A stretch of DNA of 64,000 bases from Arenicellales bacterium. GTDB taxonomy: Bacteria > Pseudomonadota > Gammaproteobacteria > Arenicellales > Poriferihabitantaceae. Shown here one piece after another: positions 9,568 to 55,961 of this stretch. Made by a program: the position numbers and the translations under genes. Positions within the stretch are counted from its first letter, which is position 1, and each line of letters begins with the position of its first letter. A model generated the notes under the pieces. That model ran no database searches. It was not told the origin of the DNA and saw nothing but the letters and a program-made list of their open reading frames with translations. The DNA lies in the NCBI GenBank assembly GCA_963665165.1, contig OY761989.1, positions 1,903,734-1,967,733 of the forward strand, given 5' to 3'.

Positions 9568-12500
9568 TGCACCTCCGCTGCGAGTGCCCGCCATCCATGA
9601 TCGAAAACGAACGCCTTGGCCTGTCCGGCAGGATCCTGGATACGGATGATATTCGGATCTGGGGTTCCCGTATGCTCCACCACATAGAGCCAGTAGTCTT
9701 CACCCCTGAGCTGGGCTGTGTCGAACTGCGTACGGGAAAGCGCGACCCAGCCATCTTCTGAAAACGGGCCGCTGATCGCCTTGACCTCGATCCACTTCAA
9801 CCCACGGTCAGCAGCATCCTTCTCGACAAGATCGAAACCGGGATTGTTTACTCCTGTCCACTGCAGATAGGGCTCCTCTTTGAGGATAAGCTGGATTGCT
9901 TGTTCTTCGAGTTTCATGTTTTTTGCGTGCGCTTCGCTGCCTTCTTCCGTGGGAGGACCGTCCCCCCCTATGTGTATGTACGTGACAGGCTTAGGTCGGT
10001 TCGTGCCATTCGTGGTTCCGCCATTCGAACGTCCTCCGCCTGAGGTTTCTTCTCCTTCTGTCTCATCAGTGGAACTGTGTTCGGTGTCGGAATCATCGTC
10101 TGCATGTTCATCGTCCTGATCCGGTCCTACAAATGCCTCATCTTCTTGATACCGTTCGAGGAGGGCTTGCAGTTGCGACTCGGTCGTAAGGCCATGCTTT
10201 TTCAACAAGGAAAGAACCTGCGGCTCAAAGCCGGCATCCAAGGCCAGTTTATCAAGATGTCCAGGCTTGAACCTGAGCCTCTTCTGCAAGTCGTGATTCT
10301 CCTTCCAGCCCAGCGCTTCAAAAGTTGTTTCAGCGGGAGAGAAAAGAACACCATCTTCTCCTACGATCCACGGCAACGTACGTAGTCGTTCAACGAAAGC
10401 TGCGTCGAAATAATGATGCTTTTGGGTATAGTAATGCCATCGATAGACTCCCCGGAATGCGACCGAACCAGATCTGTCCTCCAGATCGCAGAGTGCCTCC
10501 CACAGTAGAGAAGCTTTTCGATGCATAGTATCAATGTCCAGAGTCGGCAAGATTTCCAACACCCCCTCCAGTCCACGCAACGTGCAATCTTCGATATAAT
10601 TGCCCCCACTATTCTGTACACATCCCTCGCTGCTACGCATTTTATACAGATCTTCATGGGTAAATTCCCTCTCGCATTCCTCCGTCACAAGGCGACGGGC
10701 GGCACCAACTGCCACCAGCATGTCCCGACTCCTTTCCTGTCTCAGAACCCGAACATCAGCAACCAGTAGAACACCTTCAACCCCATCGAACAATTCTTTC
10801 AGACGCTCCGTGGCGACGTAAACCTCTCCTGGTCGCGCAAACACTGGTTCCCCCGATGCAGCGTCGAATGCGGAAACGAATGGTGTTTTCGACAAGGCTT
10901 CTTTAAGCCGTTCCAGCCTCTCCGAGGAGTCGGTCCTGAAGGCCGTCAAGATACGCTCAATATCGGATGTATACTGATCCCCGGGCAACCCCGGGCCAGG
11001 TACATATCGAGGAAGAACATGAGCAATCACGTCATCGACAAGGTCAGGCTCAGAGAGACCAAGGCGTTCGAGAAATTCCCGTGCCTCTGCTTCCCGACAG
11101 ATCGAACCTCGAACAACAGGAAAATCCGTTTCGGTTTCGCCGGGCAGGAAAGCGCAAGGATTTCCATGTACATCCTTGGCCGGGACATGAGATTCATCCT
11201 CCAGCCGTACCAATTCAATGTAGTCCAGCAGACCTTTTGACAGCAGAGATGACTGTCCCGCCAGGAAGGCATACAACTCCACAATCCAGGAATCCGTCTG
11301 CTTCTCTAGAAACTGAACACCCAACTGACGCACAACATCTTCCGGGGTTATTTCCTCAACGCCGAGTTCCTGCATCAGGCAGTTTTGCAATCCTGGGGTC
11401 CGATCCAGAGTAATGCCTCCGTCCAGCCACTTCGCTGCCTCTCCATCAGTGAACAAGTCGGATAGCTGCTGGATATCCAGAAGCTTCCGCAACCCCCTCC
11501 CTCGAGCCAACTTCGCGCACCCTGCTACAACAAAATCCCTGTCATGCGTCGGGAGGAGCCGATGCTGACGAAGAGCAGTCAGGATTGCCTCATACAGCGG
11601 ACGAAACATGTGTCTATCCCCAAATGTCTCCTGATCAATCGGGAGTGTCTGCAATGCGTCCGGATCAAGCAGCTCCAGATCCCGCAATCCTTTAAGAGCA
11701 GATACGAGTAGCTCGGCGGTGGTATCTACCAGGGAACGGTTCCACGAATCAGAACTGACAATGTTGTCACGACTGGGTGTTGTCCGATAAGGCCCTTGAA
11801 TAAGGAAACCGACATCCGTAGCTACGATCGTAGGGAAGTACACCACCAGTTCGGTATTCGTTGCCGACAATACCTTGACTGGTGAATCGGTTGCCGAATC
11901 ACACTCCACCAGAAAGGCCAACTCAGCGTGACCCACCTCGACACCGTCCTCGTCATTCACCGGTTGAGAGAAAACGATCCAGTCTTCGATGTCACCACCC
12001 GATGAATCACTGTCTTCCCCTGTAATACTGATTCGCTCCGCTCCATAGCCAAGTTCTCGTCGCGGATCCCGCAAATAAATACCCTCACCTTCATCTGCAA
12101 TCGACCACTCGATCGTCTCGATCTGGCGGAGAAATAACAGGGTTCTCGCCCCCAACCGCTTGAGCGCCTCTGTGATCTCCTGGAAAGCGTTCTCGTCGTT
12201 TTCCCGAAACGGCAGAACGATCCGCGTCTCTTCCGCTTCGCCTTTGATCGGGGAGACCTGCACAGGGTGAACATATTGCTCAATTGCGAAGTGCACTGCT
12301 CCAGAATGCACTTCGGGGCAATCAGTGTATGCGTTGACCGACTTGAATCCGATTCCAAACCGCCCTATCGCCGTAATATCCTTGGTGCTTTCATCGATCC
12401 CGCACACCCCGCGGACATCGGGCTCGGAGAACGGTTCACCGAAGTGCGAAATAACCAGTTCGTTTTCCGTCAATTCGAACCTGACAGTCCGCTGTTTCCA

Positions 12501-45177: not shown

Positions 45178-45274
45178 CGGACAAATTTACCAACAAAACC
45201 CTATCGAATCCATTGCCGGTCGGTAGCTTGCCCAATACGGGTCATATATAATCCGCCCAACCATGTCCCGCACC

Positions 45275-45362
45275 GGAGAGTTGGCAGAGCGGTCGAATGC
45301 GGCGGTCTTGAAAACCGTTGACTGTAACAGGTCCGGGGGTTCGAATCCCTCACTCTCCGCCA
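45275..45362 (+). tRNA. tRNA-Ser (anticodon UGA), copy 1
   Basis: GGAGAGTTGGCAGAGCGGTCGAATGCGGCGGTCTTGAAAACCGTTGACTGTAACAGGTCCGGGGGTTCGAATCCCTCACTCTCCGCCA. It has a 7-bp acceptor stem, a long variable arm, anticodon loop CTTGAAA and well-paired stems. Confidence 0.9.
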
Positions 45363-45425
45363 CTAAACATTATAAAACAGGGTGTTACGTGTATAATACC
45401 CCAACGCTCGCAGCCCGTTAGCTCC

Positions 45426-46985
45426 ATGAGACCGCCCGGCTTTACGCAAACACAGTTCGACTACGCTCTTGCCGCTATGATCCAGAGCGTCTCTGAATCC
45501 GGGGGGGCGCGGTGTCGCGTCGTCGCCCGAGACCTTCATCGAGCGGTCGTGGGCGCCAGCCAGCCGAACCGCATGCCGATGGCCTGCAACGCCATGTGGA
45601 AACTGGCCGAGGATCTGCCCCATACCGTTGTCCACCGTACGCCCAGCGGTCGTTCCAGTTCGCTGGAGATCGAATACCACCTTGACGGGGAGACGATCAC
45701 TGCGGCGCCACCGAGCTCGAGTCGGCGCGTTTCGCAACCACGACTAGGGCCGACCTCGACGCCGCGGTCGCCAACGTCACAGGGAGTTGTCGCCCCTGGA
45801 CGGCGGCGCGATGCCGAACTGCCCGACGCCGACCTTTACCTCGTGGCTTGCGTGAAGCGCAAGGCAAGCGCCACCATGCCAGCGAGGGAACTCTATACGT
45901 CCAGTTGGTTCCAGAGGGCACGTGCATGCGTCGAGAGGACGGGGCAGCCCTGGGCGGTTCTGTCCGCCAAGCACGGCCTTCTCTGGCCGACCGACACCGT
46001 CGCCCCGTATGAAATGACGCTCCGATCAATGTCCGGGCTGGAACGACGTCAATGGGCCGACACCGTGCTTGCTTCCTTAGCCCCGCACCTCGCCGGTGTC
46101 CGTACGATCACCATACTCGCCGGCACCACGTACCGCAAATTGCTGGTGCCAGAATTGGAAAGGCGCGACATCGAAGTCCTGGTGCCAATGGAAGGCCTTT
46201 CCCAAGGCAGACAACTCCAGTGGCTGGACATTTGCCTGACCCGCGCCCGCGCCGACGAACGGACCTCGCGGTCCCGCGTACCGCAGCCTGCCAGCGAACG
46301 GCTCGACCATCTGCGGCGCTTCTATGACTGCCTCGCGGATCTTGAGATGCGCCTCGGCGGCACACGAAAGCTGTCGGAATGCTCGAGCCATCTGTCCTGG
46401 CCCGCGCGCGGAGTCTACTTTTTCATGGAGCCCGGCGAGACCAGGTTCTATTCCGGTTCAGGACTCCGCGTTGTCCGCGTGGGCACCCACGGCTTGAAGC
46501 CCGGCGCGAGATCCACCCTTTGGAAGCGGCTGGTGCAGCACCGTGGAACGACCGCAGGCGGAGGCAACCATCGCACATCGATTTTCAGACTCCTTGTAGG
46601 CGCCGCCCTTATCGCGAGGGACAGATTCGACTGCCCATCATGGAACAACACGGGAAGCGCCCACCAGTGGAAGGAAGCGTGGGAATCACCCGTGGAACAC
46701 GCCGTCAGTGCCGTCATCGGCTCCATGCCCTTCCTCTGGCTCGATGTCCCGGACGAGCCAGGACACGACAGCCTTCGCGGCTACATCGAACGCAACGCAA
46801 TCGCCCTGTTGAGCAATCGCTGCCTACGACCCTTGGACCCGCAATCCGACGGTTGGCTCGGGCGCTACTGCGACCGGGAGAAGGTGCGAACGTCGGGACT
46901 ATGGAACTCCAACCATGTGGACAAGGAATACGATCCGGATTTCCTCCAAGCGATGGAGCGCCTTGCCGGGCAGGTGACCGCATGA
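45426..46985 (+). CDS. Three-module protein: N-terminal small domain, DUF6884/YaaA-like domain, and GIY-YIG-superfamily nuclease-like domain
   Basis: The start was moved to the first ATG after the tRNA. The N-terminal module shows DLHRAVVG..NRMPMACNAM...LEIEYHL. The middle module shows PARELYTSSWF...WAVLSAKHGLLWPTDTVAPYEMTL...LAGTTYRKLL...GLSQGRQLQWL. The C-terminal module shows GVYFFMEPGE...VRVGTH...LWKRLVQHRG...GNHRTSIFR...IERNAIALLS. Confidence 0.65.
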   Translation: MRPPGFTQTQFDYALAAMIQSVSESGGARCRVVARDLHRAVVGASQPNRMPMACNAMWKLAEDLPHTVVHRTPSGRSSSLEIEYHLDGETITAAPPSSSRRVSQPRLGPTSTPRSPTSQGVVAPGRRRDAELPDADLYLVACVKRKASATMPARELYTSSWFQRARACVERTGQPWAVLSAKHGLLWPTDTVAPYEMTLRSMSGLERRQWADTVLASLAPHLAGVRTITILAGTTYRKLLVPELERRDIEVLVPMEGLSQGRQLQWLDICLTRARADERTSRSRVPQPASERLDHLRRFYDCLADLEMRLGGTRKLSECSSHLSWPARGVYFFMEPGETRFYSGSGLRVVRVGTHGLKPGARSTLWKRLVQHRGTTAGGGNHRTSIFRLLVGAALIARDRFDCPSWNNTGSAHQWKEAWESPVEHAVSAVIGSMPFLWLDVPDEPGHDSLRGYIERNAIALLSNRCLRPLDPQSDGWLGRYCDREKVRTSGLWNSNHVDKEYDPDFLQAMERLAGQVTA

Positions 46986-48061
46986 GCGTGCTGTTCGTGA
47001 CGACCTGTTCTCTGACCAAGGCGGCCGGCGGCAAAGGCATGTTCGACCCGGAGACAGTCGTTTCCGGCTTGGCTCCCCACCACGCCGAATTGTTGGCCGC
47101 CAGGCGCGAAGAGGTCCGCGAACTCGTCAAGGGCGGCAACGCTTCAGACTGGCAGGGGGTTCCGCTCAAGGACCTCGACTACAATCGCGAACTCGTCAAG
47201 GGCGTCGAGTTCGGCGGCAGAAAGAACGCCGCCTACATGCCCGCACTCGACCGTTACCAAGGCCGGTTCTTCCAAGCGCTTGGGGACATCGGCAAGGCGC
47301 GTTGCCGCTCAAACGACAACCTGTTGATCATGTCTGGCCTCTACGGTCTCCTGAAAGCCAAAGAGCCCATGCAACTCTACAGTTGCCCCCTGTCGGCGGA
47401 CATCGCTGCGCTCTGGCAGCGCGACAGCCTGCTTACTGACATTGTCCGCGCCTACATCCACCGCAACGGAGTCCTTCGCGTAATTGATCTGACAGCGATG
47501 GACGCCTATCGCCGTCTGATCGACTGGTCCCGCATCGCTTCCCCCCGCGTCGAAATCCTGCACTGTTTCGACTCGATGGCCGCGGGAGAGAGCGCCTTGA
47601 CGTCATTCGGTAGGCTATTCCGGTACCTGACCTTCCTGGGCGATGACGAGCTGATTGACCTGGATCCCGAACATCCGCACGAAGAGTTCGGCACCTGCCG
47701 CCTCCACCGCTCCGCGGAACCGCCGAGCGACTACCCGGTCGAGACATGGCAGTCGCAACACGTGGCGGAGGTGCTAGGCGGCGGCAATCCCCAAACCGAA
47801 CCATGGCAATTCACCATGACGAACCAGTTCAAAAGGGAAGCGAGAACCGACTTCCAAGCCACACTACGCGCTGCCGTCGACATATGCAACGCGCCAATGT
47901 CGCCACGCGGCGACACCGTCAAGCCTCTTTCCGCGAACAATGATCGCTGTTGGCGCTATAGGCTGCACAAGCGCCGACTCGTATACGAGCCCGATCCGGT
48001 TCGGCGCGTAGTCCGCTTCCTCCGGTTCGAGCCGAGGGACCGCGCCTACAAGGACCAGTGA
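46982..48061 (+). CDS. YaaA(DUF328)/DUF6884-like domain fused to a C-terminal RelE/ParE-like toxin domain
   Basis: The ATG at 46982 overlaps the upstream stop (ATGA). The N-terminal module shows FVTTCSLTK...PALDRYQGRFF...LLIMSGLYGLLKAKEPMQLYSCPL. The C-terminal module shows FTMTNQFKREAR...VKPLSANNDRCWRYRLHKRRLVYEPD..RVVRFLRFEPRDRAY. Confidence 0.65.
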   Translation: MSVLFVTTCSLTKAAGGKGMFDPETVVSGLAPHHAELLAARREEVRELVKGGNASDWQGVPLKDLDYNRELVKGVEFGGRKNAAYMPALDRYQGRFFQALGDIGKARCRSNDNLLIMSGLYGLLKAKEPMQLYSCPLSADIAALWQRDSLLTDIVRAYIHRNGVLRVIDLTAMDAYRRLIDWSRIASPRVEILHCFDSMAAGESALTSFGRLFRYLTFLGDDELIDLDPEHPHEEFGTCRLHRSAEPPSDYPVETWQSQHVAEVLGGGNPQTEPWQFTMTNQFKREARTDFQATLRAAVDICNAPMSPRGDTVKPLSANNDRCWRYRLHKRRLVYEPDPVRRVVRFLRFEPRDRAYKDQ

Positions 48062-48246
48062 TCCGCGCGACCCGAACGTTGAACGCGGCCGCACCGCGTG
48101 TAAGGTGATGCACCAAGTCCATCGCCCTCGACGATCAGCTTCGACTGACGGTGAACAAAAGTCTTTGTAAACCCCATATAAACCGGGATCAGGTGGGATG
48201 AAGTGGGACAAGTGGCTGATATTACGAGCGAATACGTCAATAACTG

Positions 48247-48585
48247 TCAACCACAACCGGAATCATCGCTGAGAGAAAGTTTTTGCAAATCCAGGGTGAA
48301 GTGGCATTTACAGAGCAAAAAGACACAATCGACAGAAGGCAACAGGGAGACCCGACCATCCTCCATCTCCTGTACGGTTTATCGTTCAGTGTCTGGATGC
48401 TGATCGGAAATGCCCAGGTGCAGGACCTCGCTGCATTGACCGCTCAGACAGGCCATCGCCGCCCAATAGGGATATTTCCGGCCACCGATGATATAGACAA
48501 TGCCCGTTGCCGGCGTTGCGGGTAAATCCTCGACCCATTGAGCGGCGTATCTCATTGGTCCCGCTCTATGACTTGCCCCATTCAC
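48247..48585 (-). pseudogene. DUF6527-like gene relic (in-frame stop, eroded Cys motif)
   Basis: The reverse strand reads GIVYIIGGRKYPYWAAMACLSGQCSEVLHLGISDQHPDTER*TVQEMEDGRVSLLPSVD....CKCHFTLDL. This resembles the DUF6527 layout (...CPCGCG...P.W...dg.vtL.PSi...C.sHF) as I remember it. Confidence 0.35.
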
Positions 48586-48660
48586 CGGACCGGATTATTT
48601 ACAGTTTCAGGTAACAGGTTTTTCGGTGACACCCTACATTGCAACACTTGGGACAATCCA

Positions 48661-48900
48661 ATGAGTACCAGAACAGTTCGGCTCGACGAGGATGCGGAAG
48701 CAACACTGAAGATACTGCAAAAACAGACGGGGATGTCTATAACAACAAAACCTTATGATATTTACCGCAAACTTGACTTGGGGCCGGGTGACGAGAGTGT
48801 GTCCGCTGCCCTGATGGAACTCATTTCCAAAACAGCCCCGTCCAGAACAACCTCAGGGAGTTATCCCTTCGACGCCATTTGCGGACACAGACCACTGTGA
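48661..48900 (+). pseudogene. Ribbon-helix-helix antitoxin relic (internally deleted), no intact partner toxin
   Basis: MSTRTVRLDEDAEATLKILQKQTGMSI (RHH strand-helix) jumps directly to PYDIYRKLDLGPGD (C-terminal block of VapB-type RHH antitoxins). The second helix seems to be missing and no PIN or other toxin ORF follows. Confidence 0.4.
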
Positions 48901-48972
48901 CAACCTGGCCGCTTGATGCAGTTTAATTCAATTACGATTGCATAAAGCATCGAAAAATGATACTTTACGTGA

Positions 48973-49776
48973 ATGAAATCGAATATTCGTCCGCTACGCG
49001 CCAGGGACTACATCAACGATCTTGCCGCCTCCGGGCGCTATCACTTCTCGTCGAGTGACGCTCGTCAAGCCCTTGGCGTGTCCGCTGAGGCGACCAGACT
49101 GGCGCTGAACCGGCTGGCCCGGAAAAACAGGATCGCGCAGCCAGCGCGAGGTTTCCATGTAATCCTTCCGCCGGAGTACCGCTCTTTGGGATGCCTGCCG
49201 CCAGACCAGTTCATTGCGGCGTTGATGCAACGGCTTCGGCAACCGTACTATGTCGGGCTGCTGTCAGCCGCGCAGTATTACGGCGCTGCCCATCACCGGC
49301 CGCAGGAATTTCAGGTGCTGCTCGAAAAGGCGCGCCGACCTATCCGCTGTGGCCAAGTGCGAACTATGTTCATCGTCCGAAGGCAGCTTCAGCAGGTTTC
49401 CGTGCAGAGCTTCAACACGCCCCGGGGCACGATCCATATCTCGACCCCGGAAGCGACGGCGGTTGATCTCGCAGGTTATTGCCATCGTGCAGGAGGGATT
49501 GATCAAGTGGCAACTGTTCTGTTCGAACTTGCAGAGCAGATTGATCCACAGAAACTGGTGGCAGCCGCGCAAACTGCTCCTGTTACATGGGCGCAAAGGC
49601 TTGGATACCTGTTCGAGCGTATCTCTGCCTGCAAACAGGTCACTCTCCTCAAAGCCTATGTCAAGGATAAAGCCCGGCAAGCGGTTCCACTTGTCCCTGA
49701 GAATATCCATAAGAAAATGCCACGCGACCCGGATTGGAAGATTCTCGTCAACGCTGATATCGAGCCAGACCTTTGA
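48973..49776 (+). CDS. abiEi: AbiEi-family antitoxin/transcriptional regulator (type IV TA)
   Basis: An N-terminal wHTH (ATRLALNRLARKNRIAQPARGFHVILPPEY) is followed by the AbiEi_3/4-like YYVGLLSAAQYYGAAHH block. It overlaps the downstream NTase gene by 4 nt. Confidence 0.8.
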   Translation: MKSNIRPLRARDYINDLAASGRYHFSSSDARQALGVSAEATRLALNRLARKNRIAQPARGFHVILPPEYRSLGCLPPDQFIAALMQRLRQPYYVGLLSAAQYYGAAHHRPQEFQVLLEKARRPIRCGQVRTMFIVRRQLQQVSVQSFNTPRGTIHISTPEATAVDLAGYCHRAGGIDQVATVLFELAEQIDPQKLVAAAQTAPVTWAQRLGYLFERISACKQVTLLKAYVKDKARQAVPLVPENIHKKMPRDPDWKILVNADIEPDL

Positions 49777-50567
49777 TCCCGCACGACTACATAACGGAGT
49801 GGCGGGCTTATGCGCCCTGGGTGCAAGATTTTCAGGTAGAGCAGGATCTCGTCATCAGCCGGGCACTCATTGCAATTTTCGCCCACCCCTTTCTTGCAAA
49901 CACTCTGGCGTTCCGGGGTGGTACGGCGCTTTATAAACTTCACATTCATCCACCAGCCCGCTATTCCGAAGATATCGACCTTGTGCAGGTCAGGGCGGAG
50001 TCGGCCGGCCGAATGATGGACACGATACGGGAAGTTCTTGATCCCTGGCTTGGCAGACCACGATGGAAGCAGACCGAAGGTCGTGTGACTTTCGTCTACC
50101 GATTCCAGTCCGAAGATACGCCTCCACTACCACTCAGGCTCAAGGTGGAAATCAATTCGAGAGAACACTTTGCGGTATACGGATTAATTCAACGGCCATT
50201 CAGCGTCACCTCGCGCTGGTTTGAGGGGGAAGCGAAGATCACCACATATACGCTTGACGAGCTCATGGCGACGAAGTTTCGTGCCCTGTATCAGCGTCGG
50301 AAGGGCAGAGATTTGTTCGACCTGTTTATGGCCTTGGAAGAAACAGAACTCGACCCGAATCGGGTCATTACCGCTTTTTTGCAATACATGGCACATGGAG
50401 GCCACAATGTAACGCAAGACAAGTTCGAGCAGAATATCCGGGAAAAACTGCTTGATACCCGGTTCAACGCCGATATCGGTCCACTTCTAACTACAGAGTT
50501 CTCCTGGAATTCCCAGGATGCGATGAAGAGTATTCGCTCTCGACTGATCGCACGATTGCCGGAATGA
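49773..50567 (+). CDS. abiEii: AbiEii/AbiGii-family nucleotidyltransferase toxin (DUF1814)
   Basis: FRGGTALYKLHI...RYSEDIDLV (NTase motif), KVEINSREH and RGRDLFDL. Confidence 0.85.
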   Translation: MIPHDYITEWRAYAPWVQDFQVEQDLVISRALIAIFAHPFLANTLAFRGGTALYKLHIHPPARYSEDIDLVQVRAESAGRMMDTIREVLDPWLGRPRWKQTEGRVTFVYRFQSEDTPPLPLRLKVEINSREHFAVYGLIQRPFSVTSRWFEGEAKITTYTLDELMATKFRALYQRRKGRDLFDLFMALEETELDPNRVITAFLQYMAHGGHNVTQDKFEQNIREKLLDTRFNADIGPLLTTEFSWNSQDAMKSIRSRLIARLPE

Positions 50568-50786: not shown

Positions 50787-50874
50787 GGAGAGTTGGCAGA
50801 GCGGTCGAATACGGTGATCTTGAAAACCGTTGACTGTAACAGGTTCGGGGGTTCGAATCCCCCACTCTCCGCCA
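50787..50874 (+). tRNA. tRNA-Ser(UGA)-like second copy (5 substitutions relative to copy 1; D-stem and anticodon-stem mismatches, possibly decaying)
   Basis: GGAGAGTTGGCAGAGCGGTCGAATACGGTGATCTTGAAAACCGTTGACTGTAACAGGTTCGGGGGTTCGAATCCCCCACTCTCCGCCA. It has the same length and anticodon as copy 1. By hand folding, C11/A24 and A30/C40 are mismatched. Confidence 0.6.
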
Positions 50875-51038: not shown

Positions 51039-53159
51039 TTGGGGGAGCATATGCATGCAATAAAACGTTCATTTATGAACATAATCGAAGGCACCAAACA
51101 ATTTATCATTCCCGTCTTCCAGCGGGACTTCAGTTGGACCCGTGAGCAGTGCGAGCAATTGTGGCGTGATGTAAGACGTGCGAATGAGGGGGAAGTTGAT
51201 AGCGGACATTTCATGGGCTCAATCGTCTATATTGAGGCCGACCTTTCTAGCGCTGCTTTTCAAAGATGGTTGCTGATTGATGGACAACAGCGACTGACGA
51301 CATTGACGGTTCTCATGATCGCATTGCGCGACCACATCCAGGCAGTGTCTTGGTCTGGAAGCGATGACGGTCCTACAGCCGAAAGAATTAACGCATACTA
51401 CTTGAAGAATCTGCATGAGTCCGGGCAACGGCGGTACAAACTCATGCTGCGACGCAAAGACAATGCTACATTGCAAGCGCTGATTGACGGGGAGAGGACA
51501 ACCGACCTCGAAAACGAACACTCAGAGTTGCTCATCGACGCCTACGAGCTGTTCCTATCTAAGTTTCGAGAAACAGATTGTGACCCGGAAGATGTCTATC
51601 AAGGCATTGCCCGCTTGAACGTAGTTGACGTCACGCTTCGCCGAGGTGTCGATAACCCACAACTCGTATTCGAGAGCATGAATTCCACCGGGGTTAATTT
51701 GCGGCCAAGCGATCTAATTCGGAACTACCTCCTGATGGATCTGGGTGAATCGGAGCAGACCCAACTTTACGATAAGTATTGGAAAAAAATTGAGAGCCTG
51801 TTTCGATCATCGGGCGATGAGTTCGACAGCTTTCTGCGGGACTACATGGCGTTAGAGCAGGGTCATACTCGACAGATTCGTCTGGACCGCGTCTACGACG
51901 AGTTCAAGTCCTTCCGAAAACACGATAGTGGCAAGCCGATGGAGGTGTTGTTTGAGGACATGGTCCGGGTCGCTCGCACCTATGCATCGTTTCTTGGGAT
52001 CGCGCCAATGCAAGACTCACGGCTCGCGAATGCTATGAGCCATATGCGGTCATTGAACACGACGACCCCAAGGCTGTTAATCATGCGACTATACGACTAC
52101 CACGAAAAGGAGTCGCTATCTCAGGACGAGTTTGTCCGTGCTGTTGTGCTGATCGAGAGCTACCTGTTGCGCCGCGCCGTTCTCGGTTTGCAGACCCGTG
52201 GCTACTGGTCTGTCTTCGCCCGCATTGCACATGGTCTTAATCGCGAGTCCGTCTTCGAGTCGTTACAAGTCGAGTTCGCGCGGTTGAGGGACAACAATCG
52301 ATTTCCGAGTGACGAGGAATTCATGAGAGGATTGCAGGAACATAACCTGTATGGACTGCGTATCTGCAAGCACCTGCTGAACCGACTGGAAAACGCAGGA
52401 TATCAGGAGCCGAGCCCCGTCCATGACTACTCAATCGAGCACATCATGCCCGTAGATATCGCACAAACAACGGAGTGGCAGAACATGCTCGGAGAGAATT
52501 GGATGGAAGATCATGAGGTTTGGTTACACCGATTGGGCAACTTGACGCTGACGGCTTACAACAGCCGCTACTCCAATCGGCCGTTCGAGAAGAAAAAGAC
52601 TATAGAGGGTGGGTTCCGGCATAGCGCTGTCCGACTGAACGAGGATGTCAGAGATCAGGCGCAGTGGACCATTACGGAAATCGAAAACCGCGGGAACCGG
52701 TTGGCCACCCGTGCGCTTGCTGTATGGCCACCCCATGGAGCAGATGCAAAGAACATACAGGCGGCGGATATCCGCGATCTGAGGAAGCGTGCCGCAGAGC
52801 GAAACATTAGCGAGCTAGACATGGACGATGCAGTCCAAAATGTGCTCAATGGGATATTGTTATCCATTCGTGACTTGGTTGACGTCATTGAAGTGCTTGA
52901 GCACAAATCGGTTTGCTGTTATGGGCCAGATTTTTTCGCTGAACTGATACCGATGCGCCATTCAGTCAAAGTGATACTGCCACTACAGTTCAGTGAGGTC
53001 GAAATCCCTGAGGGGTTAGCTGTCCGTGATGCATCCACACAGAAATTCGTGGCGAATCGAGTACACACGGATAGTAACTTGATAGTAGAAGTTTCGGATA
53101 AGGCAGAAATCACGTCTGTTATGCGGATGATTCGCCAGTCTTTGGATCAGTCGCGGTAA
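51039..53159 (+). CDS. GmrSD-type DUF262 + DUF1524 protein (putative modification-dependent type IV restriction enzyme) with extra C-terminal domain
   Basis: The DUF262 part shows IPVFQRDFSW...GSIVYI...LLIDGQQRLTTL. The DUF1524 His-Me part shows YSIEHIMP...WLHRLGNLTLTAYNSRYSNRPF. An unassigned C-terminal region of ~170 aa follows. The start could be the ATG at 51051, which follows GGGGAG. Confidence 0.8.
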   Translation: MGEHMHAIKRSFMNIIEGTKQFIIPVFQRDFSWTREQCEQLWRDVRRANEGEVDSGHFMGSIVYIEADLSSAAFQRWLLIDGQQRLTTLTVLMIALRDHIQAVSWSGSDDGPTAERINAYYLKNLHESGQRRYKLMLRRKDNATLQALIDGERTTDLENEHSELLIDAYELFLSKFRETDCDPEDVYQGIARLNVVDVTLRRGVDNPQLVFESMNSTGVNLRPSDLIRNYLLMDLGESEQTQLYDKYWKKIESLFRSSGDEFDSFLRDYMALEQGHTRQIRLDRVYDEFKSFRKHDSGKPMEVLFEDMVRVARTYASFLGIAPMQDSRLANAMSHMRSLNTTTPRLLIMRLYDYHEKESLSQDEFVRAVVLIESYLLRRAVLGLQTRGYWSVFARIAHGLNRESVFESLQVEFARLRDNNRFPSDEEFMRGLQEHNLYGLRICKHLLNRLENAGYQEPSPVHDYSIEHIMPVDIAQTTEWQNMLGENWMEDHEVWLHRLGNLTLTAYNSRYSNRPFEKKKTIEGGFRHSAVRLNEDVRDQAQWTITEIENRGNRLATRALAVWPPHGADAKNIQAADIRDLRKRAAERNISELDMDDAVQNVLNGILLSIRDLVDVIEVLEHKSVCCYGPDFFAELIPMRHSVKVILPLQFSEVEIPEGLAVRDASTQKFVANRVHTDSNLIVEVSDKAEITSVMRMIRQSLDQSR

Positions 53160-53601: not shown

Positions 53602-54783
53602 TCAGGTTCCCTCAACTTTGTTTTTCAATATATTCGACATTAAGCTGGGGATGCCCGGTTCATAATAGTCCATGTCGTTATCTTCTCCACCAATTGTCTG
53701 CCAGATGAATCCGGTATGGTTAAAGGTTTCGAGAGCATACCGGACCGGTTCGTTTACAGTTCCGGGTAACGGGTTTTCCAGTAAAAACCCTTCGATTATT
53801 TTTTCGGCTGAAATCACCTGAATTTGCTCCTGTTGCAAAAAAGCGCCAGCCAGAGCTTCCGCAACGGGTAATAACCCGGCTTCCTTTATTTCCGTTTTTC
53901 GCGATTCATAGATCAAATTTCTTTGCAGGGCCACATCCTTTTCCACTGCCGCCACCATATCCATGGTAATTGTTTTGCTCCCGGTCTCAACCAGATTGCG
54001 GGAGAGAGCTTCGCCCCATTGTTGGATAAATACCGGATAACCCTGTGCGCGTACCACCGCCACTTCTTCCGCTACATCTGGAGAAAAACTGATATTCTGG
54101 TCGAGTAATGGTTTGCCAAGCGCTTCAACAGCGAACCGGTTCGATAACCGCCCCAGCGAAAAACAAGCGCATTTATCCCAAAAAGTTGAACTGGCTTTAC
54201 TGAATGTCACCTTGATATTTGGCGTTCCCGCCAGGACAAGCAAAAACTTGCAGCCTTCTCCACGAACATTCTGACTGGCGTTAAGCAATCCTTTGGCTAC
54301 TTCGGGGTCCAGTTCATGCGCTTCATCGATCATCAGCACAAACGGTTTCAGCCTGCATCGTTCCCTCAATATTTCGGTTTCATTCGTATAGATTCTGTCC
54401 TTGATGCCCGGAATACCCGCCTCAATGAAACCTGCGTCATGCTCTACCCTGATCCTGACCAGTTTGCTGATGGCATTGACCATGATTTTTATTCCCTTCT
54501 CGGTAACGCCGGAAACCAGCAGGCTCGTTAGCTGGCTTCTGTTTGAAATATCCGCCGGAGTTGTCCATAACAGGTCGATGCCCTGACCGTATTCTTCCCT
54601 GGTTTTCGACTCCAGATGACGAAGCAGGGATGTCTTGCCGTTTCCACGCGGACCAAAGACAATAATACTGGCGCCAGGCGGTTTATCCGTAACCAGCCTT
54701 CGGATGGCTTTATTGTAATAGTCCTTCTCTTTTTCTCGCCCGGAAAACCAGGGAGGCTTTACGATTTCCCGACAACCCCTCAC
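53602..54783 (-). CDS. AAA+ ATPase (ORC/Cdc6-like 'ATP-binding protein'), orphan
   Basis: FSGREKEKDYYNKAI is followed by Walker A GPRGNGKTSLL, Walker B FVLMIDEAHEL and sensor-like LAGTPN. The only plausible start is the GTG at 54783, which overlaps the upstream TGA. The longer ORF to 55272 overlaps the ybdK-like gene out of frame. Composition is visibly more AT-rich than the upstream gene. Confidence 0.6.
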   Translation of the reverse strand: MRGCREIVKPPWFSGREKEKDYYNKAIRRLVTDKPPGASIIVFGPRGNGKTSLLRHLESKTREEYGQGIDLLWTTPADISNRSQLTSLLVSGVTEKGIKIMVNAISKLVRIRVEHDAGFIEAGIPGIKDRIYTNETEILRERCRLKPFVLMIDEAHELDPEVAKGLLNASQNVRGEGCKFLLVLAGTPNIKVTFSKASSTFWDKCACFSLGRLSNRFAVEALGKPLLDQNISFSPDVAEEVAVVRAQGYPVFIQQWGEALSRNLVETGSKTITMDMVAAVEKDVALQRNLIYESRKTEIKEAGLLPVAEALAGAFLQQEQIQVISAEKIIEGFLLENPLPGTVNEPVRYALETFNHTGFIWQTIGGEDNDMDYYEPGIPSLMSNILKNKVEGT

Positions 54784-55961
54784 GCAGCCTCGACTTCCGC
54801 CCGTGTTTCTGCGAGCAGCAGGTCGACTACGCGGCATAGCGCCTCTTCGTGGGTGTCCCCTTCCAGGCAGCGCAACTGGTAGAGGTCCAACTGGCGGTCC
54901 GCGCTGGTGCCCTCCCTGATGATGGTCATTGCGTAGCGCAGCTCGGGCTCGCACCCCAGCGCACGGGCATCGGCGGCCAGCTCTTCGATGAGTTCGGCAA
55001 GGTAGTCCTGGATATCGACCCTGGAGCCCGTTATTCGCCGGTCTCCGAAGAAGGAGAATACGCCATAGCGGTGTGCGTTCCAGCGATCCTCGGAGATCAG
55101 TTCGGTCAACGGTCCGGGTGTCAGGTCGCCGTCCCGGTCCCGGCGCAGCAGCCATCTGATCAGCGATGCATACAGCGCCGCCATGCTCACCGCGTCCTCC
55201 AATCGCGTACAGACATCGCAAATGCGCATCTCCACCGTCGGATACGCATGGGAAGGGCGGATGTCCCACCATAATTCGCTGCCATCCGTGACAAAATTGC
55301 AGCGCTGAAGTTCCGCCAGCAGCTTCTCATACTCTGCCGACGAGCCGAACGGGGCAGGCAGGCCGGATCGCGGGAGACTTCCAACGACGGTCATCCTCCA
55401 GGATTTGAATCCGGTCCCGCGCCCGTCGCTGAACGGCGAGGACGTCGACAGGGCAAGGAGCAACGGCAAGTACTGCCGGAGCGCCGTCATCACCCGAATG
55501 CGCGCATCCGCATCGCCGAACCCCGCATGGATGTGCATTCCGCCGATCAGAAAGCGGCGCAGATTATCCTGATGGGCGGCCACAAATTGTTCGTAGCGTT
55601 CCTTCGGCGTGGTTGACTGTACCTGCCACCGCGCAAACGGATGGGTGGAGGCAGCCATTACCGCGGCCCCGTACCGCTCTGCCGCCGAGATGATAATGCG
55701 TCGGGTCTCGATCAAAGCCTCGCGCAGTTCGGCGACCGACTCACACACTCTGGTATTGCTTTCGATCTGGGAGCGCATCAACTCCCGCACAATCTTGTGC
55801 GGCCCGCATGTCTTTTCGCAGGTTTCGAAGATGCCCGGGTCGGGGTCAATGAGAAGGTCACGGGTCTGCGGGTCCACCAGAAAGCACTCTTCCTCGACTC
55901 CGAGCGTGATCTTCAGGTCATCGTGGTCCCCTGTCGTCGTCATCGGTTCAATCGGGTTCAT
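54780..55961 (-). CDS. Carboxylate-amine ligase, YbdK/GCS2 family
   Basis: LGVEEECFLVDPQT, GMHIHAG and WWDIRPSHAYPTVEMRICD are GCS2 (glutamate-cysteine ligase family 2) signatures. Confidence 0.85.
   Translation of the reverse strand: MNPIEPMTTTGDHDDLKITLGVEEECFLVDPQTRDLLIDPDPGIFETCEKTCGPHKIVRELMRSQIESNTRVCESVAELREALIETRRIIISAAERYGAAVMAASTHPFARWQVQSTTPKERYEQFVAAHQDNLRRFLIGGMHIHAGFGDADARIRVMTALRQYLPLLLALSTSSPFSDGRGTGFKSWRMTVVGSLPRSGLPAPFGSSAEYEKLLAELQRCNFVTDGSELWWDIRPSHAYPTVEMRICDVCTRLEDAVSMAALYASLIRWLLRRDRDGDLTPGPLTELISEDRWNAHRYGVFSFFGDRRITGSRVDIQDYLAELIEELAADARALGCEPELRYAMTIIREGTSADRQLDLYQLRCLEGDTHEEALCRVVDLLLAETRAEVEAA

Follow-up and report, generated by a model that had tools for sequence, protein, structure and literature searches.

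In a 64,000-nucleotide stretch of the genome of an Arenicellales bacterium (contig OY761989.1, positions 1,903,734 to 1,967,733; hereafter the window), two adjoining genes, here called A and B, each encode a protein that joins a domain of the YaaA/DUF6884 fold to a C-terminal domain of a putative nuclease or a toxin family. We propose that the two are separable, single-polypeptide sensor-effector proteins of anti-phage type, each carrying its YaaA/DUF6884-fold domain as a recognition module, and we give this reading a probability of roughly 0.5. In gene B, the RelE-type domain keeps the residues of the RelE catalytic positions and the N-terminal domain recurs with other effectors. The genes lie where an earlier sequence-only reading of the window had placed them, and the module boundaries it drew agree with Pfam and PADLOC matches.

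45426..46985, plus strand: gene A, 519 amino acids (aa); a single chain with an N-terminal domain, then a disordered linker, DUF6884 and GIY_YIG_3
46982..48061, plus strand: gene B, 359 aa; YaaA-like domain and RelE-type domain

Gene B: a YaaA-like domain fused to a RelE-type domain

The protein encoded by gene B divides into two parts:

46982..47716, plus strand: B aa 1–245, YaaA-like domain with invariant C9-S10-x2-K13 and the motif S118-G-L-Y-G122
47789..48058, plus strand: B aa 270–359, predicted RelE-type mRNA-interferase domain

The first of the two motifs is the CxxxK of DUF6884 proteins, and the second is of YaaA type. Taken singly, the window's protein matches YaaA (PF03883) marginally over aa 82–187 (31.1 bits; cut-off 29.6) and stays under the cut-off for DUF6884 (PF21818; 18.2 bits). 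Within the family alignment of 107 members, which are 39–90% identical to the window's B, PF03883 is matched by all 107, ParE_toxin (PF05016) by 97 (E <= 0.01; best 6.4e-10) and YoeB by 13. The AlphaFold2 (AF2) model is confident (pLDDT 89.3, pTM 0.76), and a Foldseek search with it ranks E. coli YaaA (5caj) first, with E 3.1e-8 over 256 columns. The YaaA-like module named by the sequence-only reading is thus borne out by family and fold.

The same search returns, after 5caj, about 30 RelE, YoeB, YafQ and HigB structures with a target-normalised TM-score (TMt) of ~0.7; ParE structures rank lower. Matches to the C-terminal domain include RelE2 (3g5o, TMt 0.71), Thermus thermophilus RelE (2khe, 0.69) and aRelE (1wmi, 0.74), at a probability of 1.00. 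A profile of the B family, searched against PDB sequences, recovers RelE2 Rv2866 (1.2e-7), T. thermophilus RelE (3.2e-6), an archaeal RelE (8.4e-6) and RelE1 (1.7e-5). Aligned to E. coli RelE, B residues R332, R352 and Y356 correspond to R61, R81 and Y87, while R325 and R327 fall on the strand of K52 and K54 with a register uncertain by 2. All five B residues are kept in at least 90% of the 107 members, and R332 is invariant. Because these catalytic-position residues are conserved, the domain looks like an active RelE-type mRNA interferase and not a ParE-type gyrase poison, in line with the RelE/ParE-like assignment made at first reading.

RelE toxins are normally held under a separate antitoxin. 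No conserved small neighbour that could be one was found across 26 B loci, nor in three loci in which close relatives of B stand alone (L033, L035 and L036). The earlier statement that no antitoxin-sized reading frame accompanies the RelE-like domain therefore holds for the family, but the window does contain a weak ribbon-helix-helix (RHH)-like small open reading frame (ORF) downstream, described below with the genomic setting.

Gene B contains a perfect 19-nt direct repeat (47117-47135 and 47186-47204) that encodes RELVKG twice, 23 codons apart. Gene B had no match by tblastn in plasmids and cultured phages, and none in IMG/VR. Literature searches, in which the terms DUF328 and rele mostly matched unrelated words, returned no paper on the architecture of either A or B.

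The B-type N-terminal domain with other effectors

A search of the B profile against 1.84 billion representatives gave 3945 matches at E <= 1e-3, 227 of them at E <= 1e-30. Among the best 150 matches, about 35 include the RelE part and about 79 share the N-terminal domain only and continue into other tails. Pfam assigns these tails to Schlafen/AlbA_2 (13 proteins), HEPN (5 proteins forming one cluster), NERD, DUF4145 and HEAT repeats; tails of 105–150 aa without annotation occur in two further large clusters, with 24 and 14 representatives. In four proteins of 570–700 aa (P0273, P0280, P0284 and P0293), an N-terminal DUF6884 segment is followed by a B-type YaaA-like domain and, at the C-terminus, by HEAT repeats, so DUF6884 and the B-type domain do co-occur in one polypeptide. 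Such a domain composition, with one constant N-terminal domain and interchangeable RNase or nuclease C-terminal domains, is the hallmark of sensor-effector proteins in immunity.

A direct precedent, by analogy, for a RelE that is governed by a sensor and needs no antitoxin is Cami1, an ancillary effector of type III CRISPR: in this CARF-RelE fusion, ligand binding leads to cleavage of mRNA in the ribosomal A site (PMC11229360). As is proposed for B, it holds a ligand-sensing domain and a RelE-family nuclease in one chain without an antitoxin, and it stops translation on activation (PMC11229360). The sensor of B, however, is YaaA-like and not a CARF domain, and its ligand is probably a nucleic acid and not a cyclic oligoadenylate; no CRISPR or cyclase gene was seen near B in the contexts examined. 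The Cami1-related structure 8phb appears among the Foldseek matches of B at low probability.

Gene A: a fused form of the candidate system PDC-M57

PADLOC lists a candidate, PDC-M57, made up of PDC-M57A (DUF6884) and PDC-M57B (GIY_YIG_3). Gene A matches both hidden Markov models (HMMs). The AF2 model of its product (pLDDT 87.3) shows three folded domains (aa 1–90, 137–272 and 289–516) and a disordered linker at aa 92–128. We take the ATG at 45426 as a sensible start, since a longer, TTG-initiated reading would enter the tRNA gene upstream; this start is also supported by homologues of 519–523 aa, which align over 100% of the protein.

45426..45695, plus strand: A aa 1–90, small alpha/beta domain, order H-E-H-H-E-E, winged-helix-like topology (AF2 pLDDT ~70–94)
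45837..46229, plus strand: A aa 138–268, DUF6884 (PF21818), YaaA-related 'cantaloupe' fold (Pfam E 1.8e-43, 148.4 bits; cut-off 30)
46296..46973, plus strand: A aa 291–516, PDC-M57B or Pfam PF26468 (GIY_YIG_3), putative nuclease effector (PADLOC E 1.9e-82)

The N-terminal domain has no Pfam match and only a weak best Foldseek match (2ns0, TMt 0.63). It is kept only in the closest relatives, and tblastn detected it in none of the distant A-like loci.

The DUF6884 assignment is strong. Besides its Pfam score, the segment at aa 137–268 matches PDC-M57A (E 1.1e-31, profile positions 4–133 of 138), and it carries the two motifs set out for DUF6884 by Pfam's curators (PMC11701544), CxxxK as C142-VKR-K146 and LSAxxG as L179-SAKH-G184, both conserved in the family. 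A structure search of BFVD with A leads to phage DUF6884 proteins. The sequence-only reading had placed a DUF6884-like module at this position, and here it was right.

The C-terminal domain covers PDC-M57B profile positions 2–233 of 238. Its name, GIY_YIG_3, comes from precomputed annotations of an identical protein (P0121) and of A homologues. Residues G329, Y331, R351-V-G353, R368, H372, H382, E455 and N494 are conserved, G329-V-Y331 forming the first motif and R351-V-G353 the second, and the AF2 order (beta-beta-alpha...beta-alpha) is compatible with GIY-YIG. We infer from the Pfam name and these motifs a GIY-YIG active site in which Arg would replace the second Tyr. The domain is found alone, beside a DUF6884 gene, or fused to DUF6884, and in this distribution it behaves as an effector module.

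Since both PDC-M57 HMMs match one uninterrupted 519-aa ORF, A is, at the level of profile matches, a single-chain fusion of both PDC-M57 proteins with an extra N-terminal domain. PDC-M57 as two separate adjacent genes is thus not what A shows: the window has the fused variant, which further differs in the ~90-aa N-terminal domain and the disordered linker. Gene B is not part of PDC-M57. The statement that no named defence or toxin-antitoxin system has this architecture was consequently wrong for A; the family of B is unnamed. No paper in the library searched mentions PDC-M57.

Relation of the two modules and the A–B junction

The sequence-only reading described one module duplicated across both genes. 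The two modules do belong to one superfamily: B matches both PF03883 and PF21818, and 57 of 92 A homologues match PF03883. The relation is distant only, however, with a profile-profile alignment (hhalign) joining B aa 77–193 to A aa 142–252 at E 0.006. Recent paralogy was rejected on this value, and the DUF6884 module of A and the YaaA-like module of B are, by profile comparison, distant homologues.

The reading frames of A and B overlap by four nucleotides, as had been noted:

46982..46985, plus strand: ATGA start/stop overlap, junction GCATGAGC; B ATG at 46982-46984, A TGA at 46983-46985

In three relatives (L117, L032 and L034) a spacer of ~130 bp containing a GGAGG ribosome-binding site precedes B:

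L117:8420-8549: A–B spacer
L032:7871-8000: A–B spacer
L034:7867-8000: A–B spacer

Compared with these, the junction in the window has undergone a clean deletion, bounded by CGCATG(C/A)G microhomologies. The overlap is therefore best described, from the alignment of junctions, as a derived state, a ~130-bp deletion private to this lineage. Translational coupling, which had been read from the overlap, is likewise private to this lineage; the relatives retain the spacer and a separate GGAGG.

Linked but separable genes

We scanned synteny of B in one genome per species, obtaining 31 B loci, mostly from uncultured Alphaproteobacteria and Gammaproteobacteria, with single ones from Heimdallarchaeota, Chloroflexi and Armatimonadetes. 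An A-like gene, or a DUF6884 plus GIY_YIG_3 pair, adjoins B in 6 of the 31, and a fragment does so in a seventh (L008):

L009, L013, L015: A-like gene upstream of B, same strand
L011: A-like gene downstream of B, same strand
L003, L006: A-like gene downstream of B, convergent

The DUF6884 and GIY_YIG_3 genes are split in L013 and L015. Among closer relatives, A lies directly upstream of B in L032, L034 and L117, and B is alone in L033, L035 and L036. In all, A-like genes flank about 9–10 of 32 B loci (~30%), in three gene orders, and most B loci are solo. No other neighbour family of B is conserved.

Seen from the other side, 80 metagenome loci with GIY_YIG_3 comprise 30 with DUF6884 fused or adjacent and 50 with a solo gene of ~235 aa, and a B-family gene is present in 0 of the 80. 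The solo GIY_YIG_3 genes have no conserved upstream partner. An A homologue of 66% identity without B (L119:1-6558) lies beside Gabija-like genes, encoding an AAA_15/OLD-TOPRIM protein as well as UvrD helicases, and beside a BrnT-toxin/HTH gene; the 352-aa gene that follows it was considered as a divergent B and rejected as unrelated. A-type genes also occur on ~17 IMG/VR contigs, solo GIY_YIG_3 genes on several haloarchaeal plasmids (Haloarcula, Salinibaculum, Halorientalis), and a split DUF6884 and GIY_YIG_3 pair on a Deinococcus plasmid.

These distributions bear on the possibility of an obligate system of two genes, A and B, with products that would cooperate through a shared trigger, through co-translation, or with A as an antitoxin-like control of B. 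Adjacency in ~30% of B loci, the three gene orders, which argue for selection on proximity, the ATGA overlap in the window and the fusion of DUF6884 with a B-type YaaA-like domain in P0273-type proteins all speak for such a system. Nevertheless, we regard it as unlikely: B is solo in most loci, none of the 80 A-family loci has a B-family gene, A-type genes travel on viral contigs and plasmids without B, and the overlap is a private deletion next to relatives that keep the spacer and a ribosome-binding site for B. Because B is mostly solo, A loci lack B and the overlap is lineage-private, the two genes are, to judge from this sampling, linked but separable modules, neither of which needs the other. 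The description of the pair as a two-gene cassette forming one system was accordingly too strong; the check that it proposed, for conserved neighbourhood of the homologues, gives adjacency in about 30% of B loci, with B mostly alone. Even so, the two genes adjoin much more often than expected by chance, and in more than one order, which suggests a functional synergy.

Several side genes were seen at these loci. In L117 and L032 a gene of the uracil-DNA glycosylase (UDG) superfamily (24.2 bits against a cut-off of 24.3) overlaps the stop codon of B and is followed by a weak helix-hairpin-helix (HhH)-GPD-like gene and a DUF6946 gene; the HhH-like gene recurs next to the A-like gene in L009 with 72% identity.

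L117:9626-10342 and 10538-11251(-): UDG-like and HhH-like side genes
L032:9102-9794: UDG-like/HhH-like side genes
L009:7588-8298: HhH-like side gene

As conserved parts of the locus both were rejected, the UDG-like gene being confined to L117 and L032 and the HhH-like gene to these and L009. A queF gene lies just upstream of A in L117.

Proposed mechanism

In the reading that we prefer, a nucleic-acid-binding domain of the YaaA/DUF6884 fold would serve as the recognition module in A and in B alike. In A, recognition by DUF6884 would direct the GIY_YIG_3 domain to cut DNA, so that this fused PDC-M57 might function as a type IV-like restriction nuclease that depends on a modification or lesion. 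For B, we infer that the N-terminal domain keeps the RelE domain inactive in cis, and no antitoxin would be needed for B because RelE would be held off in this way. Binding of a trigger would then release RelE, shut down translation and lead to abortive infection. An anti-phage function would fit the defence-type context, with AbiE and GmrSD in the window and Gabija-like genes beside an A homologue.

Several observations weigh against this account. For A, the second motif has Arg where the Tyr of the canonical YIG sits; no GIY-YIG structure is found in the top 50 Foldseek PDB matches of the full-length model; the A-family profile recovers no GIY-YIG chain among PDB sequences, only chance-level matches such as RbcX; and hhalign of the C-terminal domain with I-TevI and UvrC aligns short motif fragments without significance. 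GIY_YIG_2 is matched weakly by 2 of 92 A homologues in a Pfam scan (E 0.026). The DNase-type, GIY-YIG-like effector proposed earlier for A is thus plausible by its Pfam name, whereas structure and profile tests gave it no independent confirmation. PDC-M57, moreover, is a computational candidate only, and A matches DpdC HMMs weakly and in part, over 58 residues at E 4e-6. For B, the window's own protein reaches only E 0.026 and 15.5 bits against ParE_toxin PF05016 (aa 287–356; cut-off 23), and the genes around solo B are mostly housekeeping or variable and not clearly defence islands. Finally, YaaA is a DNA-binding protein associated with peroxide stress and YfjM a protein that binds abasic and RNA-base lesions (PMC11701544), and because of these stress and lesion links the sensed feature could be DNA damage and not phage DNA.

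Candidate trigger

The candidate trigger that we put forward, speculatively and by analogy, is phage DNA carrying a 7-deazaguanine modification of preQ0 type. Its basis is twofold: DpdC, so far the sole DUF6884 enzyme to be characterised, turns preQ0-DNA into ADG-DNA (PMC10164549), and phage DUF6884 genes adjoin DpdA. A compact DUF6884 gene is common in phages and repeatedly adjoins DpdA or a tRNA-guanine transglycosylase (TGT) gene. In Fusobacterium phage phiFN37 (L200:6182-8009) its neighbours are a TGT gene on one side and a queuosine-precursor transporter on the other, and in Halorubrum tailed virus 29 (HRTV-29, genus Dpdavirus; L202:3995-5120) it overlaps DpdA. Among ~63 DUF6884-only loci of IMG/VR, at least 12 have a TGT-like gene within 6 kb:

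L142, L164, L165, L170, L171, L174, L180, L182, L183, L187, L188, L199: IMG/VR DUF6884-only loci with DpdA/TGT

In viruses, this neighbourhood connects the domain with 7-deazaguanine modification of DNA. No TGT or DpdA homologue was found in the window or at any A or B locus, which argues against A and B being modification enzymes themselves and fits host reuse of the fold as a reader. Two weaker leads agree with this. One is the Foldseek match of the DUF6884 region of A to 2q07 (probability 0.99, E 0.035), which may be an ArcS-type domain; 2q07 and 2ns0 are both weak PDB matches of the full-length A model. The other is that ArcS and ArcS2 enzymes act on preQ0 and carry a PC-x3-KPY motif (PMC10516641).

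In its most specific form the proposal would make YaaA/DUF6884 folds readers of a hypermodified base, preQ0-type 7-deazaguanine, in incoming DNA, A the first restriction-type nuclease against phage genomes modified in this way, and B the first RelE toxin held in cis and released by a DNA modification, within a wider sensor class coupled to RelE, Schlafen, HEPN and NERD. We consider it improbable that all of this is correct.

Alternative explanations

About as doubtful as that specific form is the idea that B is a stress or addiction module, in which the YaaA-like domain would sense oxidative or other DNA damage and gate RelE-mediated arrest, or in which B would stabilize the island as a fused toxin-antitoxin. 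The peroxide-stress and lesion-binding properties of YaaA and YfjM (PMC11701544), the UDG-superfamily and HhH-GPD-like genes that follow B in L117 and L032, and the housekeeping genes that often neighbour solo B can all be quoted in its support. On the other hand, the Schlafen, HEPN and NERD domains on the same N-terminal domain are typical immune effectors, and the family has a patchy distribution, horizontal spread and a foreign composition; in the window it lies within an island that also holds AbiE and GmrSD.

It is very unlikely that A, B or both are DNA-modification or repair enzymes, processing 7-deazaguanine or damaged bases in the manner of DpdC. DpdC is indeed a DUF6884 enzyme, CxxxK is kept in A and in B, and phage DUF6884 genes occur in DpdA clusters; the lack of any DpdA/TGT gene and, the queF gene near A in L117 aside, of que biosynthesis genes in the window and at A and B loci, partner domains drawn from toxin and nuclease families and not from repair scaffolds, and the conserved RelE catalytic positions all point away from it.

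Least probable of all is a selfish, homing-endonuclease-like A next to a B whose RelE-like domain is dead and serves a structural, RNA-binding or ribosome-binding role, their adjacency resulting from shared insertion hot-spots: a DNA-binding domain with GIY-YIG is the classic homing-endonuclease layout, A-type genes do occur on viral contigs and the contexts of solo GIY_YIG_3 genes are very variable, but at least 90% conservation of the RelE catalytic-position residues across 107 sequences of 39–90% identity speaks against a dead domain, repeated A–B adjacency in three orientations is unlikely from hot-spots alone, and no intron or intein context was seen.

Genomic setting

The surroundings of A and B agree with what the sequence-only reading reported: the pair is GC-rich, lies directly 3' of a tRNA-Ser gene and has AbiE and GmrSD nearby.

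45275..45362, plus strand: tRNA-Ser(TGA) (ARAGORN), upstream border of the imported segment
48655..48897, plus strand: RHH-like small ORF, N-terminus MSTRTVRLDEDAEATLK; sole Pfam match weak (DUF6290, E 0.066)
48973-49776, plus strand: AbiEi (Pfam E 5e-50), context only
49773-50567, plus strand: AbiEii (Pfam E 1.4e-41), context only
50787..50874, plus strand: second tRNA-Ser(TGA) (ARAGORN), not identical to the first
51039..53159, plus strand: GmrSD-type type IV restriction enzyme (GmrSD_N E 6.5e-35, GmrSD_C E 5.4e-25), context only
53602-55272, minus strand: AAA ATPase ORF, 556 aa as listed, overlapping the GCS2 ORF by ~490 bp
54780-55961, minus strand: GCS2 ORF

The GC fraction is 0.61–0.67 over A and B, compared with 0.55–0.60 upstream and 0.41–0.54 downstream. 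As part of our preferred explanation, A and B would have been brought in jointly by a GC-rich segment that inserted next to tRNA-Ser, and an imported defence-type island as their setting is supported. Proteins identical to A and to B are on record together on one NCBI/ENA contig. The window contains no integrase gene between 45 and 64 kb, a megablast of the A–B cassette against plasmids found no match, and a promoter and terminator scan of 45200-49000 found nothing. From ~54.8 kb onward the genes are ordinary metabolic ones again.

The RHH-like ORF has no conserved counterpart near other B genes and is probably a decayed antitoxin remnant outside the A and B modules. The ATPase ORF probably starts at an internal codon, because its AAA match begins only at aa ~177.

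Both tRNA-Ser(TGA) copies are complete; 5.5 kb separates them, and over 110 nt they share 89% identity. Between them are A, B, the RHH remnant and AbiEi/AbiEii; GmrSD and the AAA ATPase lie past the second copy. A 51-nt direct repeat of 78% identity joins 48584-48634, downstream of B, to 53739-53789, in the 3' part of the minus-strand ATPase gene.

Comparison with known systems and significance

Toward RelBE and YefM-YoeB, the likeness of B lies in its C-terminal domain, with its RelE fold, RelE profile similarity and catalytic-position residues. B differs in lacking an adjacent antitoxin gene, in its length of 359 aa, of which the toxin domain forms the C-terminal third, and in the mostly solo occurrence of the family. 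With E. coli YaaA (DUF328, 5caj) and with DUF6884/DpdC, A and B have fold and motifs in common; YaaA and DpdC, however, stand alone without a toxin fusion, and neither dpdA nor dpdB lies near A or B. Type IV restriction enzymes such as GmrSD resemble A as a predicted nucleic-acid reader plus nuclease in one chain within a defence island, but the reader (DUF6884) and nuclease (GIY_YIG_3) of A belong to other families. Gene A is thus a fused member of a catalogued candidate, and B is an undescribed variant of the sensor-fused RelE principle within a broader, unnamed YaaA-like class.

The B family couples RelE, which would normally answer to a separate antitoxin, to a YaaA-like domain; it lacks an antitoxin, and its genes mostly stand alone. 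Together with the Schlafen, HEPN and NERD swaps, this points to a hitherto undescribed class of proteins that combine sensor and effector in a single chain. The fusion seen in A supports a functional link between the two components of PDC-M57. Through the B family, the YaaA/DUF328/DUF6884 fold, for which a biochemical role is established in DpdC only, also becomes accessible to experiment. We met no dedicated restriction system against 7-deazaguanine DNA in the literature surveyed; if such DNA is indeed the trigger, A and B would serve their hosts against a strategy by which phages evade restriction, and if the reader interpretation holds, the long-puzzling YaaA/DUF328 fold would gain a defined molecular role.

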